NCBI GenBank assembly: GCA_965197475.1
Contig: CBDANF010000003.1
Span: 3,392,001-3,456,000 of the forward strand
Direction: 5' to 3'
Source of the DNA: Candidatus Poribacteria bacterium
GTDB lineage: Bacteria > Poribacteria > WGA-4E > WGA-3G
Length of the DNA: 64,000 nt
Shown here: piece by piece, positions 2,798 through 39,258 of the stretch
Position numbering within the stretch: position 1 is the first letter of the stretch
How the letters are laid out: each line of letters begins with the position of its first letter
Position numbers and translations under genes: made by a program
The notes under the pieces: generated by a model
The model's database searches: none
Seen by the model: the letters and a program-made list of their open reading frames with translations, nothing else
Told to the model about the DNA's origin: nothing

Positions 2798-4408
2798 TCA
2801 CCGCATAACAGCCACCTTTTTCACGAGGGTATATGTTTCACCTTTTACATCGACTGAAATATAACAGATATAAATCCCTGCCGATACGGCTAACCCATAG
2901 GCGGTTTGCTGATTCCACCATGTCCGCCAAACCCGTTTGTTGAGTCTGTCCTCTACCCCCTCGACTCTTTTAATTAAGCTACCGTGAACATCGTAGATGT
3001 GAACCTTCATACCAGTAATTTCCAGATTTCCCTCAACGCGGAATTCTGTTGGATTGTTGGAACGTACAGGATTAGGGGATATGATTACATCTTTCCATAC
3101 GAATGCTTCTTCTAAAACGACAGATCGCTTCACTGAAGTAGCACCCAGTGGATACCGTGCTATGCCAAGCAGGGTATTTACCCCAGGAGCCAGCGGAATC
3201 GTTGCTGTGTAGGTTTGATTTTCTCTATCTAACTTTGCCTCCACACCGCTTGGATGAAAAATAATATCAATTGGAAAATCGGAACGGAATGTGCCATTGA
3301 TTTGCAGTGGATTCTGTTTGACGATATCGGGTAGTTCAAACGTAATCTGTGGCATTTGCCGTTCAGGTTGGAACATATCAGTGAGGAGACTATCCACTGT
3401 GACAAGCAAAAGTTGTGTAATCTTTGTCACCAAACGGAAGTTGATCTTATCAACAGTATCGCGGAATGTATGATAGAAAGGATTGACATCGTAGTTTTGC
3501 GAATCACGCCACGGTGTTGAACTTTCAATTAATGTGACTGCCGGATAGCCTGAATCCCAGAAAGGTTTGTGTGAAGAGATGTCAATAAATTCATCCTGCG
3601 TTCGCCGAATTTTCAAGCCGATGTCATACCATGAGTTAGAAATTATGAGCGCACGACTTAACCATGCTGAATCTCTGTTGGAAATTACTTCAACAAGGTC
3701 ACTTTTCCAGTTGAACCCAATCATGTCTAAATTAAAAACGGCGGCAATTTTTTCGGAATCCGGTGTGCGCGTTGTCGTTGAAAAATTGTTGTGGGGATTT
3801 CCATTTCCAACTGCTTCTCGGACATAGTTGCGACTCCCCAAAAAACCGAGTTCCTCGCCACCCAAAGCAATAAATTTTATTTCATGATTATATTCATACT
3901 GACTTAGGATATTGGCGATTTCCAACATTGCCGCAACACCTGTGCCGTTTTTGTTTGCTCCGGGCGCACTTGATGCCAAAGGATTCCAATTCGGTTCACG
4001 TCCGGCTTGCGTGTCGTAATGTGCACAGATAATAAAGACACGTTTGCTTGATGAAGTCGGCTTCGGTGGTAGAACTGCTACAACATTCCGAATACCGCCA
4101 ACGATCTGCTCACTCACTTGTAGCTGTCCGGAGCTGCGAAACTTAAATTTGATGTAATCTACAACGTTATCTGTCGCTTTCCGATGATGTGCACTGCGTG
4201 TGCGGTAAGCTAGTTCATTCGGATGATACGAGATATTTTCCTGCAGTGCCGTAACATGGGAAACTAACGCATCGGACTTCACCTCAGTAATGAGTTCATC
4301 TCCACGCTCAGCATTTACCGAAATTGAGGGAAAAAGTGTGAATAGAAAAATTGCGTAGGTTTGCGCTATTAAGAACTTATAGGGTAGACACTTAAATTGG
4401 CTTGACAT
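2798..4408 (-). CDS. Secreted M28-family peptidase-like protein with C-terminal FlgD-Ig/secretion-type domain
   Basis: Signal peptide; IICAHYDT, PGANKNGTG (usual DD replaced), GEELGFLGS, NLDMIG, YHT..D; C-terminal ISPNP...IYD..G.LI...W...VSAGIY. Confidence 0.8.
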   Translation of the reverse strand: MSSQFKCLPYKFLIAQTYAIFLFTLFPSISVNAERGDELITEVKSDALVSHVTALQENISYHPNELAYRTRSAHHRKATDNVVDYIKFKFRSSGQLQVSEQIVGGIRNVVAVLPPKPTSSSKRVFIICAHYDTQAGREPNWNPLASSAPGANKNGTGVAAMLEIANILSQYEYNHEIKFIALGGEELGFLGSRNYVREAVGNGNPHNNFSTTTRTPDSEKIAAVFNLDMIGFNWKSDLVEVISNRDSAWLSRALIISNSWYDIGLKIRRTQDEFIDISSHKPFWDSGYPAVTLIESSTPWRDSQNYDVNPFYHTFRDTVDKINFRLVTKITQLLLVTVDSLLTDMFQPERQMPQITFELPDIVKQNPLQINGTFRSDFPIDIIFHPSGVEAKLDRENQTYTATIPLAPGVNTLLGIARYPLGATSVKRSVVLEEAFVWKDVIISPNPVRSNNPTEFRVEGNLEITGMKVHIYDVHGSLIKRVEGVEDRLNKRVWRTWWNQQTAYGLAVSAGIYICYISVDVKGETYTLVKKVAVMR

Positions 4409-30674: not shown

Positions 30675-30708
30675 CGTCTGTAGTTGCCTTGTGGGGTAAC
30701 TACAGACG
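30675..30708. repeat. Long hairpin (REP-like or terminator)
   Basis: CGTCTGTAGTTGCC...GGTAACTACAGACG immediately after the stop codon. Confidence 0.6.
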
Positions 30709-30896
30709 CTATTTACACGCATCATAATCGTGGTTTTATAACTTGCCCCTTGATATCCTCCTCTTTTTCTAAACTTTTAGTTCAATATGGTACGGTTTTT
30801 ACAAACCATTGGCATACTACGTCTAATGAAATAATACCATATAAATTTACGCAATGAGTAGTTTTGGACTTGATAAATTTGAGAAAAATTTTTCAC

Positions 30897-30925
30897 TTGA
30901 CAAAATCCTGCCAGTATAGTATCCT
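30897..30925 (+). promoter_or_regulatory. Sigma70-type promoter inside the IS1595 left end
   Basis: TTGACA-17 bp-TATCCT. Confidence 0.6.
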
Positions 30926-30933
30926 ATTAACAT

Positions 30934-31012
30934 CACGAATTTTGGTAGAGAATGTTAGCCGCGTCGCAAGGCGCGGTCTCTACCTCAACCGCCTAACATC
31001 GGAAAATTCGTG
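30934..31012 (+). ncRNA. Candidate structured RNA (nested stems, GCAA tetraloop, pseudoknot) upstream of a DUF805 gene
   Basis: CACGAATTTT/AAAATTCGTG, GGTAGAGA/TCTCTACC, CCGCGTC-GCAA-GGCGCGG, crossing ATGTTAG/CTAACAT. Confidence 0.6.
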
Positions 31013-31067
31013 TGTGTGAATTCGTGAATCAATGCAACACATTTCATATATTTTATGGACTCACACA

Positions 31068-31588
31068 ATGGAGTCTTTGCATCTAAAACCCCATTGTGCT
31101 GTGTCCTATGCCAAAGGAGTTTAGGATGCACAAAAAAGTTGGACCTGGTGGCGTTATTCTTAATCCTGTAAGCACACCACCGTGGGAATCACCAATAGAT
31201 GAGGTTATAATACCTCCAGCATTGTCACGTCCAGATGAATTTAAAACCAACTGGAAACAATTGTCGTTTTCATTCAAAGGTAGAATAAACCGAAAAGACT
31301 TTTGGATATATTTCTTAGGTACTGGTTTATTATACATAACTTTTTGGGGCATTTTTGATATATACAGTAGGTGAAATTGCGTATTACGCTTTTATGATAC
31401 CAATTAGTATCGTGAAATTCTTCTGGTGTGATAACGCTGTTATCGTGAAACGATGCCATGATTTTGGTAGATCTGCTTGGTATCTTATCCTATTTTACAT
31501 ACCTCCGATTGGTATAGTCATTTGGTTTATGCTTGCTTTCAGTAAAGGTGATCCCGAACCAAACAAGTATGGCAACCCACCTAAATAA
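31068..31588 (+). pseudogene. DUF805 (YhaH-like) membrane protein, frameshifted
   Basis: FSFKGRINRKDFW in one frame and VKRCHDFGRSAW...GDPEPNKYG in the next; shift in homopolymers at 31341-31356; possible second shift at C4 31089-31092. Confidence 0.8.
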
Positions 31589-31637
31589 CCCAACAACGAG
31601 GGGACTCTGTCCCCTCTAACCACAAAGGAGAAATCCG

Positions 31638-31889
31638 ATGAATAATTTAGTCCAAGAACAACAAGGACAACTTCAACGAAAAGAAGATATTCAGAAAGGA
31701 GTAGCAGAACTTTTAATTACTCCACTTCTGGATGACCTTGAAAAAGCATATAACGATTTTAAAAGTAAAGATTTAAAATCTATCCATCAACTAACACAGG
31801 CTTTGAGTATATTTGTGAAAAAGACAAATGAAATTAATTCACAAGTTAGTTATGTGAATAGTGTTCTTAATTATCTTTCACAGAATTAA
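31638..31889 (+). CDS. Small hypothetical passenger protein (83 aa)
   Basis: AAGGAG RBS, helical composition. Confidence 0.6.
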   Translation: MNNLVQEQQGQLQRKEDIQKGVAELLITPLLDDLEKAYNDFKSKDLKSIHQLTQALSIFVKKTNEINSQVSYVNSVLNYLSQN

Positions 31890-32052
31890 CCTTTTGACAC
31901 ATTTCATCAATAAGATGAAGACCTTTGTTAAGTCTTTTTGTGTCACCGATATTCGTTCTTTTTACTAAATCAGTCATAGGACCGCGTAGGAATTGGATAT
32001 GTTGTTCTTTACTGCGTGGTCCTTCTTTTCTTACTTCAATTTGTTCACTCAT
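31867..32052 (-). CDS. Small hypothetical protein coupled to the transposase stop
   Basis: ATGA overlap with the transposase stop codon. Confidence 0.5.
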   Translation of the reverse strand: MSEQIEVRKEGPRSKEQHIQFLRGPMTDLVKRTNIGDTKRLNKGLHLIDEMCQKVNSVKDN

Positions 32053-32929
32053 CTCATACTTTCATTGACAAACTTATCAAAGATGCTGTCAACGCTCCTA
32101 TAGTTATACTTATAGCACGCTTCCGCCACATATAGCGGTGTGTATCCTGTCTGATAGTGGTGATGACTTCCATACCAAGCGCGTTTGAGAAGCGACCAGA
32201 AGCCCTCAATCGTGTTCGTATGGACATCACCCTCAGCAAACTGCACCTTGTGGTTGATAACAGCGTGCTTCATTTCTTTCCCAATAGCGTTGTAAGCCTG
32301 ATATTCATCGGTTATTAGTTCCGATTTTTTAGGTTTACAGCACTCCGAATAAACTCAAGGATAGTGCGTCCTGTGAGGTTGTGTGCCACTTGTGCGACAA
32401 CCCTACCTCCACGCTGCACTGCTCCTATTATAGCAGTTTTTTCAGTGCCTCTGCCACGTTTATGTGGTTCATCATCTTCACGTTTGTTCTTTTTACGAGG
32501 TTTACCGCCAATATAGGTCTCATCTGCTTCAATGATACCTTGTAGTAAAGCCCCGCCTTTCTTCGCCATTTCAGCACGGATACGAGTCATTATAAACCAT
32601 GCTGTCTTTTGATTCAAGTCTAAATCGCGCGCAAGTTGATGACTTGACAAACTTTTCTTCGCATTCGTTATCAACGAAATAGCTAAAAACCACTTCTGTA
32701 ACACTACCTTTGTCCCGTGAAACACCGACCTGCACGTCACCTTGAAACTCACTTGGCACTCGTGGCAGTTCCAACGACCGATACGACCGATCTTTGTCTC
32801 CTCACGCCTGCCCACATGACCGCTTTCACAATGCGGACACACAGGTTTACCTCGCCAACGAATCTTCTCTAAATGCGAAATACAACTCTCTTGATCCGGG
32901 AAACGTTCCATCACCTTCAACAAATCCAT
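32049..32929 (-). pseudogene. IS1595-family transposase, frameshifted in an A6 run
   Basis: CPHC...C..C zinc ribbon, IEADETYIGG, then ITDEYQAY, VINH, HTNTIEGFWSLLKR in a shifted frame (T run 32325-32330). Confidence 0.9.
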
Positions 32930-33345
32930 CAGATAACTCCTTGAAATAGGAGTTGCTTTTTCTGACGGACTTCTGATACAATATCAGATAAGATTAAACC
33001 TTCAGAAAGCAACTCTGCTTTTTGGGTTAATTGGGAGGCTACAACCTCCCTTTTTTCTTATCTATATTATACCATATAAACCCAGTGGACACAAGGCTTT
33101 ATAGCGATTTTTAAAATTTTTTATCAAGTCCAAAACTACTCATTGCGTTTTTTAATCGTGTATAAAACATCACAGATAAAAAATAAATGCGGTCATGATG
33201 CAACCGGTATGCAAATTTTTGATAATGGTATACACAAAACTTGGTAAATTATAGGTTAATTAATATTGTACTGCCACCGGAAATTCGGGCCGCTCTCTAA
33301 GACAAGATTATGGTATAATATCCATCTCCTTGAAAGGAGTATCCG

Positions 33346-33636
33346 ATGGCGAAACGAAAACGAAGAAACTTCACCCCCGAGTTTAAAGCCGAAGTTGTTC
33401 TTGAGGCTCTCAGCGTTGAAAGTTCCCAAGCAGAAGTGTGTCGGCGACATAACCTCATCGATGAACAACTTTCAAAGTGGAAGCGACAGCTTCTTGAAAA
33501 AGCGGCGACCCTCTTTGAACCCGCTGATAAACAGTCTGATGCCTCTGCGGAGCGGATCGCCCAACTTGAGCAACTCGTTGGGCGGTTGACCTTGGCACTT
33601 GACATCCAAAAAAAAGCCTCAACTTACTTGAGTTAG
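33346..33636 (+). CDS. IS3 transposase OrfA
   Basis: RRNFTPEFKAEVV HTH plus leucine zipper. Confidence 0.92.
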   Translation: MAKRKRRNFTPEFKAEVVLEALSVESSQAEVCRRHNLIDEQLSKWKRQLLEKAATLFEPADKQSDASAERIAQLEQLVGRLTLALDIQKKASTYLS

Positions 33637-33641
33637 CCTCG

Positions 33642-34472
33642 ATGGAGCAGCGAGAAATGGTTACGGCATTACGGACAGACTTTTCGGTTCGGCAGATATG
33701 TGAGACACTCGGTTTCAACCGAAGCAACCTCTATTATCACTCCAAGCAGGCCCCGTGTGAAGCGGGCCTCCAGGATGAAATAGAGACGTTATCTTTGCTA
33801 TATCCAACATACGGATATAGGCGTCCCACACAGTTGTTGGTGCGTAGCGGATACACCATCGGGTATAAACGTGTTGCCCGATTGATGAAGTCCGCCAACC
33901 TCTCGGTTTCTGTCAAGCGTGTCTGTCAAACCACGACATCCGTTGCGGGTGTGCGTCCCTGGAGCAATCGCCTTGAAAACCTTGATGTCTCCCGATGTGA
34001 TCAGGTCTGGGTGGGCGATATCACCTACGTCCGCCTCAAAGGACACTTTATCTATGTTTGTCTGCTCATGGATGTCTTCACTCGCATGATCAGAGGGTGG
34101 TATATCAGTCAACACTTGACGCAATCTCTAACGTTGAAACCTTTGGAGACAGCATTATGTCAAAATGTCCCAGAGATCCATCATTCTGATCAAGGCGTTC
34201 AATATCTTTCAAATGCGTCCATCTCACTGCTTAGGCATCATGGGATTGAGATTTCAGTCGCCCGGAGAGGGTGTCCTTGGGAGAACGGATATGCTGAAAG
34301 ACTTATCCGCACGCTCAAGGAAGAAGAAGTTCATCTCAACGACTATGAGGACATCCACGAAGCGAGAGCCCGCATTGGGCATTTTATTACACAAGTATAT
34401 AATCACAAACGCCCTCACTCTGCGTTAGGGTATTTGACACCTGTGGAATTTGAGCAAAAAAACTTGTCTTAA
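33642..34472 (+). CDS. IS3 transposase OrfB (rve DDE)
   Basis: YGYRR, WVGDITY, HHSDQGVQY, ENGYAER..RTLKEE, YN..RPHSALGY. Confidence 0.95.
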   Translation: MEQREMVTALRTDFSVRQICETLGFNRSNLYYHSKQAPCEAGLQDEIETLSLLYPTYGYRRPTQLLVRSGYTIGYKRVARLMKSANLSVSVKRVCQTTTSVAGVRPWSNRLENLDVSRCDQVWVGDITYVRLKGHFIYVCLLMDVFTRMIRGWYISQHLTQSLTLKPLETALCQNVPEIHHSDQGVQYLSNASISLLRHHGIEISVARRGCPWENGYAERLIRTLKEEEVHLNDYEDIHEARARIGHFITQVYNHKRPHSALGYLTPVEFEQKNLS

Positions 34473-34511
34473 CTTTGCTAAATTTTGGTCTGAATAAACG
34501 GTAGCACTTCA

Positions 34512-37510: not shown

Positions 37511-37584
37511 TGGGCTTACCTGGAATCGAACCAGGGACCTCGCGCTTATCAGGCGCGCGCTCTAACCTTCTGAGCTATAAGCCC
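37511..37584 (-). tRNA. tRNA-Ile (GAT)
   Basis: Reverse complement GGGCTTATAGCTCAG...CTGATAA...GGTTCGATTCC...TAAGCCCA cloverleaf; CCA not encoded. Confidence 0.97.
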
Positions 37585-37698
37585 ATAGGAGAAGGCAGAA
37601 AGCGTGTTTTTTGAAAGTTAAATAGGAAGTCGTAATATGCCTTGTAAGATAAAGAGCGTATTGAACAAGGAGATTGTGTGAGAATTCCCTTGTTAATG

Positions 37699-39258
<1,560 letters not shown>

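Follow-up and report, generated by a model that had tools for sequence, protein, structure and literature searches.

A pseudoknotted RNA family that appears to lead mobile-element transcripts in sponge-associated Poribacteria

We analysed a 64,000-nucleotide (nt) stretch of DNA from a Candidatus Poribacteria bacterium (assembly GCA_965197475.1, contig CBDANF010000003.1, positions 3,392,001 to 3,456,000 of the forward strand; hereafter the window, numbered from its first base) and find that positions 30934-31012, near the left end of an insertion sequence (IS) of the IS1595 family, specify a pseudoknotted RNA. Covariation among relatives shows that this structure is real and strand-specific, and places the segment in a large, apparently undescribed family of RNAs of about 75-85 nt that stand at the 5' end of transcripts of mobile and selfish genes in sponge-associated Poribacteria. 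The family is restricted to one phylum among the genomes searched, and its carriers include at least two unrelated transposon families and free-standing selfish genes. Going by sequence comparison, our preferred reading, to which we assign a probability of roughly 45%, is that the RNA would be a cis-acting 5' leader, one that locks the 5' end of the mRNA and gates translation through a swap of partners in its closing helix, P1. The original prediction for this DNA had proposed a promoter-driven pseudoknotted RNA on a transposon, serving as a cis-regulatory RNA, an antisense or antitoxin RNA, or a small ribozyme; its structural half is now supported by the covariation and by the promoters of relatives, and among its functional suggestions cis regulation appears to be the best reading.

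The RNA and its promoter in the window

A sigma-70-type promoter on the plus strand, with TTGACA at 30897-30902, a 17-nt spacer and TATCCT at 30920-30925, is directed into the element and is the top-scoring promoter-like site of 30700-32100 (10 of 12 matches). The parts of the RNA and its leader follow it:

30934-30943, plus strand: P1 5' strand, 10 Watson-Crick base pairs (bp) with 31003-31012, at or no more than about 2 nt from the inferred transcript start
30944-30951, plus strand: P2 5' strand, GGTAGAGA, 8 bp with 30977-30984, the helix with the highest sequence conservation
30952-30958, plus strand: 7-nt bulge between P2 and P3, which is the 5' strand of the kissing helix, 7 bp with 30993-30999
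30959-30976, plus strand: P3 hairpin, 7 bp (30959-65/30970-76) including one G.U, with a GCAA loop
30977-30984, plus strand: P2 3' strand, partner of 30944-30951
30989-31002, plus strand: P4 mini-hairpin, a 3-bp stem CCG/CGG (30989-91/31000-02) with an 8-nt loop, the last 7 nt of which (30993-99) kiss the bulge
31003-31012, plus strand: P1 3' strand, partner of 30934-30943
31019-31026, plus strand: duplicate of the P1 3' strand, AATTCGTG, a near copy and alternative partner for the P1 5' strand
31064-31098, plus strand: second hairpin of the leader, fully paired but for one A/C mismatch, situated after the RNA and before the ribosome-binding site of the DUF805 gene

The promoter and all four pairings named in the original prediction were recovered base for base, and to these we add the P4 stem and the near copy of the P1 3' strand. 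RNAfold gives the plus strand of 30930-31030 an energy of -37.7 kcal/mol, where shuffles average -23.7 (z = -4.76) and none of 200 folds as well; for the minus strand z is -2.51, and 6 of 200 shuffles do as well. G.U pairs are confined to the plus strand, both in the window, where the T.G pair of P3 is possible on that strand alone, and in the family alignment. The minimum-energy nested fold has the P1 5' strand paired with the duplicate at 31019-31026, and the last three bases of that duplicate are a GTG (at 31024) that opens a short open reading frame (ORF) of 20 codons. The window RNA is a single unit in which only a 7-10-nt strand is duplicated, with no tandem repeat array. ARAGORN reports 0 tRNA or tmRNA genes in 30700-31300, and no terminator-like sites were found in 30700-32100.

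The Rfam comparison suggested in the original prediction was run, and no family matches the RNA. At the gathering score, the only Rfam 15 matches in the 64-kb window are small-subunit (SSU) rRNA and one tRNA; at E <= 10, the interval 30700-31300 yields three chance-level matches, none of them on 30934-31012; and at E <= 1, nothing falls on the RNA in 11 loci with other sequence types. A chance match to a miRNA model traces the hairpin at 31064-31098, and a second sequence type, type B, has a related hairpin whose loop is similar.

Relatives within the genome

A descriptor scan written for the helix layout located 28 sites, belonging to seven sequence types, in the genome of 5.7 Mb, while each of two block-shuffled genomes gave 0; the covariance model R2, described below, finds 27 sites in the unshuffled genome. 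Type B comprises four further IS copies with the RNA at 87% identity, in which the crossing (kissing) helix is changed compensatorily on both strands, and IS types C, D and G retain the helix layout with the sequence of every helix wholly different. Across types, the bases flanking the 3' strand of the crossing helix form a stem of 3-4 bp, P4 (3 bp in the window), whose sequences vary among types yet remain complementary. The architecture is accordingly a three-way junction formed by P1, P2 and P4, with the 8-nt loop of P4 kissing the 7-nt bulge between P2 and P3. The strands that join the helices at this junction are variable, being 0-6 nt long and not conserved in sequence.

Covariation at every pair

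Covariance model R1 was built from two sequences, and the guided alignment of twelve types led to R2; MAFFT alignments of divergent types were structurally wrong and were replaced by the model-guided alignment. The covariation set consists of 101 matches (96 distinct) from 99 loci. Of its 3012 base-pair cells, 98.3% pair, against 72.4% in shuffles, and the observed value is reached by 0 of 500 shuffles; as a control, partners slid by 1-3 columns pair at 35-42%. Compensatory changes in homologues, which the original prediction had named as the test of its structure, are present as double changes at all 32 pairs among the 96 distinct sequences, the crossing helix included.

Taken helix by helix, the inner 7 pairs of P1 were scored and 7 of 7 covary (98.9% of cells pair), as do 8 of 8 pairs in P2 (99.5%) and 7 of 7 in P3 (99.4%). 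Double changes are seen at each of the three P4 pairs, the numbers of sequences being 3, 7 and 23, and 90-96% of the cells pair. A model-fitted alignment favours the nested helices; the crossing helix stands outside the search model, and 7 of its 7 pairs covary, with 96.8% of cells pairing. This covariation is among the cleanest obtainable.

Distribution

R2 has matches in 104 of 151 sampled genomes of the same phylum, Poribacteria, about 940 in total and 1-31 per genome. Sorted by family, they occur in 88 of 99 genomes of one family (f1), in 15 of 26 of another (f3), and in 0 of 25 genomes from seven other families. No match was found in 5 genomes of other phyla that carry relatives of IS1595, nor in 151 genomes of the phylum to which one of those carriers belongs. 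When 80 loci encoding relatives of the transposase were searched, R2 gave 17 matches in 16 loci, all from Poribacteria.

Conservation, and the sensor and ribozyme alternatives

Sequence conservation is concentrated in P2, where several positions reach at least 90%, at one position of the P3 loop, and in J2/4, the A-rich strand between P2 and P4. Of the unpaired columns a single one reaches 90%, namely position 2 of the P3 loop, which is C in 92 of 92 sequences; the junction and the hinge vary. The overall pattern would suit tertiary contacts or a bound factor. It is also what might be expected of a riboswitch-like or protein-binding sensor, whose junction would bind a small molecule, an ion, or a protein of the host or of the element, and such a sensor could make use of the alternative partners of P1; the architecture, moreover, resembles that of purine-type aptamers, in which a three-way junction is held by a distal loop contact. 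But the junction strands vary in both length and sequence, the genes downstream have no common metabolic theme, and the element's own proteins differ from case to case, and we regard a sensor of this kind as quite unlikely.

Less likely again is the small ribozyme of the original prediction, which as a self-cleaving RNA would trim read-through transcripts. Compact pseudoknotted folds in mobile elements are known from several ribozyme classes, and the RNA is like them in this respect, but no Rfam ribozyme family is found at E <= 10, the junction and hinge are variable with a single unpaired column conserved to 90%, and the transcript appears to start at P1, which would leave nothing upstream to remove. 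We consider this function very unlikely.

Promoter and P1 duplicate across the family

Sequence contexts were compared for 98 members, which are the best-scoring genome-search matches (89 extra loci) and not a random sample. A sigma-70 promoter scoring at least 10 of 12 lies upstream of 77 of the 98 distinct members and in none of 460 control windows, and in 92 of the 94 members that score 8 or more, 2-9 nt separate the end of the -10 box from P1. From this spacing we infer a transcription start at roughly the first base of P1.

A second occurrence of the 7-nt core of the P1 3' strand, identical at 6 or all 7 positions, is found within 28 nt in 74 of 97 members but in only 8 of 96 controls, and the two tandem copies are spaced by 4-11 nt. 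Since the duplicate follows P1 although P1 differs between types, it appears to be under selection. Duplexes with the 5' strand are predicted to have a mean energy of -9.8 kcal/mol for P1 and -8.7 kcal/mol for the duplicate, and in 27 of 64 cases the duplex with the duplicate equals or exceeds P1 in stability. An ATG lies in or adjoins the duplicate in 59 of 98 members, 36 of which have GGA in the spacer, a loose proxy for a Shine-Dalgarno sequence that comes without a control count. In copies that precede the nuclease gene tnpB, the two P1 3' copies are separated by a spacer resembling a Shine-Dalgarno sequence, and the ATG lies within the distal copy; in IS1595-type leaders, an ATG or GTG stands at the 3' edge of the duplicate in 13 of 13, opening a short ORF of 3-48 codons.

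Genes downstream, and the antisense and DNA-level alternatives

The first downstream ORF was taken as one of at least 60 amino acids (aa) starting within 400 nt, with Pfam families assigned at E <= 0.001. Among 92 distinct cases, 30 encode TnpB (OrfB_IS605 together with a Cas12f1-like TNB domain), 5 are GIY-YIG, 3 DUF805, 2 trypsin-like, 2 CARDB, 1 is a DNA methylase and 1 an MvaI/BcnI restriction enzyme; the rest are without a family. The original prediction was correct in placing the window RNA upstream of a DUF805 gene, though that gene is split by a frameshift near 31341. Its tie to the DUF805 RNA motifs fell away, with no match in Rfam 15 and DUF805 first downstream in only 3 of 92, and we take the link of the RNA to the DUF805 gene to be incidental. 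In TnpB copies the RNA is located between the gene and an IS605-type left-end hairpin with promoter, and the ORF starts between 2 nt before and 17 nt after the 3' end of the model match. An IS of type J (at least 8 copies in one genome) has the RNA without a cargo gene, and its transcript would enter the 3' end of the transposase gene directly.

This last arrangement bears on whether the RNA, or the long transcript that it heads, could be a trans-acting or antisense regulator that pairs with the convergent transposase mRNA and limits transposase. The cargo-less type J, whose transcript runs straight into the transposase 3' end, and the window promoter, which faces the same end with no terminator up to 32100, both fit such a role. 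However, 30 tnpB and 5 GIY-YIG genes among the 92 first ORFs are co-directional with the RNA, and loci with an IS1595 transposase contain it in only 16 of 80 cases, and we think that regulation of this kind is distinctly unlikely. The antitoxin or free antisense RNA of the original prediction is disfavoured as well, by the lack of a terminator and by the position of the TnpB ORFs, which begin so close (-2 to +17 nt) to the end of the model match.

The position of the RNA might instead reflect a function in DNA, as a set of transposase-binding sites or as single-strand DNA hairpins, given that it adjoins the IS end and, in TnpB elements, the left-end hairpin. Yet it is found with transposons of two unrelated mechanisms and with free-standing genes, promoters precede family members at the frequency given above (77 of 98), the G.U pairs would be A.C mismatches on the other strand, and the helices are hypervariable in sequence. 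To this explanation we give almost no credence.

RNA-library evidence

Sponge metatranscriptomes from four runs of one study, stored as low-depth contigs and not as reads, offer weak support for transcription. Contigs of three of the four runs cover the RNA and extend into the DUF805 gene (X1, 30910-31547; X2, 30960-31483; X3, 30960-31336), with no differences within the RNA, and the bin at 30700-30786, to the left of the element, is covered in 0 of 4. Two runs have breaks at 30960, which probably mark points where the assembly branched between sequence types and as such are uninformative on RNA ends; nor do the uncovered parts of the element count as evidence either way. In two of the four runs the contigs are without one base at 31341, which would close the frameshift in DUF805.

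A candidate switch in the closing helix

As the most economical mechanism we propose the following. The knotted domain would bury the 5' end of the mRNA in P1, giving a stable and defined 5' terminus. The 5' strand of P1 could then pair with either of two near-identical 3' partners, the proximal or the distal copy. The proximal copy would complete the junction and act as a decoy, so that the start codon is left free; the distal copy usually includes the codon at which the first cistron starts, be that tnpB or, as in the window, a short leader ORF, and pairing with it would mask that codon. The balance between the two might be set by the folded state of the kissing domain, or by a factor on the conserved P2/P3 region, and with it the translation of nucleases and cargo. 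In the window element, an unterminated transcript would also run antisense into the 3' end of the transposase gene.

Several observations weigh against a partner-swapping leader. The knotted domain is intact in both conformers, and nothing yet ties the domain to the swap. No ATG is found in or adjoining the duplicate in 39 of 98 members, the GIY-YIG copies are without a start codon in the duplicate, and the contexts counted here are, as noted, those of the best-scoring matches. Where the duplicate differs from the P1 3' strand, pairing is preserved at 38 of 81 positions, every one of them a transition, a result that is not clearly beyond neutral drift and so not decisive on selection. As for the promoter of the window itself, the 5 promoter-like sites of 30700-32100 are matched by a shuffle mean of 5.2, so that the single site is not above chance and its weight comes only from comparison with relatives. 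One X1 contig begins at 30910, which is 22 nt upstream of the inferred start, and the contigs reveal neither strand nor ends, come from a multi-copy element and could include DNA carry-over. Finally, the cargo-less type J fits an RNA with its own role at least as well.

It is also possible that there is no switch at all, and that the RNA is purely a stabiliser or insulator of the 5' end, protecting the transcript from nucleases and lengthening its half-life, with the duplicated strand serving as redundancy by which the 5' end stays paired. In nearly all members a strong promoter places the start of the fold at about +1, the RNA precedes unrelated genes and in type J an antisense transcript without any gene, and the junction and hinge are variable, all of which such a stabiliser would lead one to expect. 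A simple hairpin would suffice for that purpose, however, and the 7-bp kissing helix, the conserved P2 and the start codon in the duplicate ask for more; we consider a pure stabiliser unlikely, if by no means far-fetched.

The idea of a leader that swaps P1 partners can be extended, tentatively and with more doubt than we attach to the leader itself, to an RNA switch used across the mobilome of one phylum. The 5' end of the transcript would mask the start codon of a nuclease such as TnpB unless the decoy copy captures it, the kissing-loop junction would be a sensor of temperature, an ion, a metabolite or a host protein, and promoter and switch together would make a portable cassette. Because the same promoter-leader cassette heads unrelated selfish genes, the family does point to modular exchange of expression signals within the mobilome. 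TnpB is the ancestor of Cas12 nucleases, and an RNA that precedes it may show how such nucleases are checked in their natural hosts. The tandem design of a decoy followed by the real start site would, in addition, be a simple and testable switch that could be reused in synthetic biology.

The IS1595 carrier and its surroundings

The carrier is a 2.3-kb element of the IS1595 family at about 30844-33148, one of four near-identical copies (type A) in the 5.7-Mb genome. Its assignment to that family by the original prediction is borne out by the inverted repeats, the multiple copies, and matches of the transposase to DDE_Tnp_IS1595 and to an N-terminal zinc ribbon, Zn_ribbon_IS1595. Apart from the RNA and its leader, the element contains:

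30849-30877, plus strand: left (transposase-distal) terminal inverted repeat, matching the reverse complement of 33120-33148 and the ends of other IS copies
31126-31588, plus strand: DUF805 cargo gene, ORFs 31096-31374 and 31355-31588, Pfam DUF805 E = 4e-15 (second half)
31598-31631, plus strand: intercistronic hairpin GAGGGGAC-TCT-GTCCCCTC with the Shine-Dalgarno sequence of the next ORF, kept among several IS types
31638-31889, plus strand: 83-aa ORF of unassigned function, no Pfam family
32049-32929, minus strand: IS1595-family transposase, ORFs of 204 aa and 74 aa, Pfam DDE_Tnp_IS1595 and Zn_ribbon_IS1595, convergent with the RNA-led transcript
33120-33148, minus strand: right terminal inverted repeat, whose reverse complement matches 30849-30877

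The interval 31590-31631, around the intercistronic hairpin, has 91-95% identity to about 25 other IS copies. As assembled, the DUF805 gene has its frameshift near 31341, with an intact 141-aa relative in type G, and the transposase of the window IS type has a 1-nt deletion relative to the intact type G copy. Both single-base frameshifts (31341 and 32290-32315) lie beside homopolymer runs and are found in all four type A copies; they could reflect faults of the assembly or true mutations. The 8-bp flanks of the type A copies (the window copy, C2:409816, C3:1593924 and C3:3193152) are exchanged between copies, the right flank of the window copy being the left flank of C3:1593924 and the right flank of C3:1593924 the left flank of C3:3193152. 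These swapped flanks (30840-30850 and 33148-33160 in the window) point to genome rearrangement by recombination between IS copies.

Other IS types differ in what accompanies the transposase. In type E (six copies; C3:1329700-1330300), an IS1595-type element less closely related to the others, what follows the promoter is not the RNA but another leader, one with a long stem. A conserved ORF of 90-127 aa with no Pfam match stands just before the transposase 3' end in several IS types (C1, G, D1) and is also found downstream of an RNA copy outside any IS, type H1 (at 2162-2545 of the locus C3:2861900-2865100, minus strand); the ORFs of type A (31638-31889) and type B differ from it or are faintly similar. 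The first cistron after several leaders is a very basic protein of about 42-45 aa (motif ...RPATTVKET.KP..) with no Pfam match, and several other cargo ORFs likewise gave no Pfam family.

At C3:2861900-2865100 (about 770-1000 and 2814-2850, minus strand) there is also a CRISPR-like mini-array of four 37-nt repeats that abuts a truncated DNA-methylase ORF, and a solitary related repeat lies 50 nt downstream of the non-IS type H1 copy. We take this adjacency to be incidental, and the H1 copy resembles a truncated TnpB element. A hairpin upstream of types H and I, with only 3 occurrences in the genome, is not a CRISPR array; judged against the copies linked to TnpB, it is probably the left-end hairpin of an IS605-type element. 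Insertion sequences are very abundant in this genome. Directly to the right of the window element, at 33261-34500, is a two-ORF insertion sequence (96 aa and 276 aa) with more than 30 genome copies at 98-99% identity, which we judge by ORF layout alone to be of the IS3 type, and the minus strand at 37511-39258 encodes a 16S rRNA and a tRNA.

Comparison with known systems

A full-text literature search, whose scope ended short of subscription papers and survey supplements that may list the motif under another name, returned no description of this RNA. A 2017 survey reportedly named a 'Poribacteria-1' motif, which, should Rfam include it, does not match the RNA described here. The DUF805 and DUF805b RNA motifs of Rfam lie upstream of DUF805 genes, a position shared by the window RNA; they differ in that Rfam gives no match and a DUF805 gene follows in so few members of the present family. 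Type III toxin-antitoxin RNAs are marked by a repeat array, a terminator and an endoribonuclease toxin, whereas here we find a single unit, no terminator and varied genes.

Likenesses to better-known structured RNAs lie in the junction and in the choice of partners. Three-way junctions of purine riboswitches and hammerheads have a distal tertiary contact between two arms, as does this RNA, and in both P1 can be seen as the switching helix; here, however, the contact is a full 7-bp Watson-Crick helix between loop and bulge, the junction strands are unconserved, and there is no match in Rfam. In hok, hundreds of bases separate the pairing partners, and it is processing at the 3' end that flips the switch. 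The likeness to hok/sok would be that of an mRNA 5' end choosing between two complementary boxes, one of which governs translation, but in the present family the partners are in tandem, 4-11 nt apart, and no toxin is involved.

The closest comparisons in terms of genomic setting are with RNAs of insertion sequences themselves. Omega-RNA, which carries the guide, overlaps the transposon's right end as well as the 3' end of tnpB. One published account describes structured sotRNA/omega-RNA from IS200/IS605 and IS1341-type TnpB elements (PMC4615843). The RNA described here is likewise structured and found on TnpB elements (tnpB accounts for 30 of the 92 downstream genes), but it is an approximately 80-nt 5' leader of tnpB and stands also before IS1595 cargo, GIY-YIG and other genes; among the papers listed by a search on TnpB/IS605 and leader RNA, omega-RNAs, introns and a repressor protein are treated, and no 5' leader.

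Structured 5' leaders of insertion sequences are already known, and it is against these that the family, for which we found no described counterpart with this fold and which is apparently undescribed, is best set. IS10 is controlled by RNA-OUT and by fold-back inhibition. A study of IS200 tnpA reports a structured 5' untranslated region (UTR) and processed small RNAs (PMC5435999). What these systems have in common with the present one is a structured 5' region, encoded by the insertion sequence, that controls or masks translation starts; the fold differs, the Poribacteria RNA being a pseudoknotted junction joined to a duplicated strand, carried by several unrelated elements within one phylum among the genomes searched.

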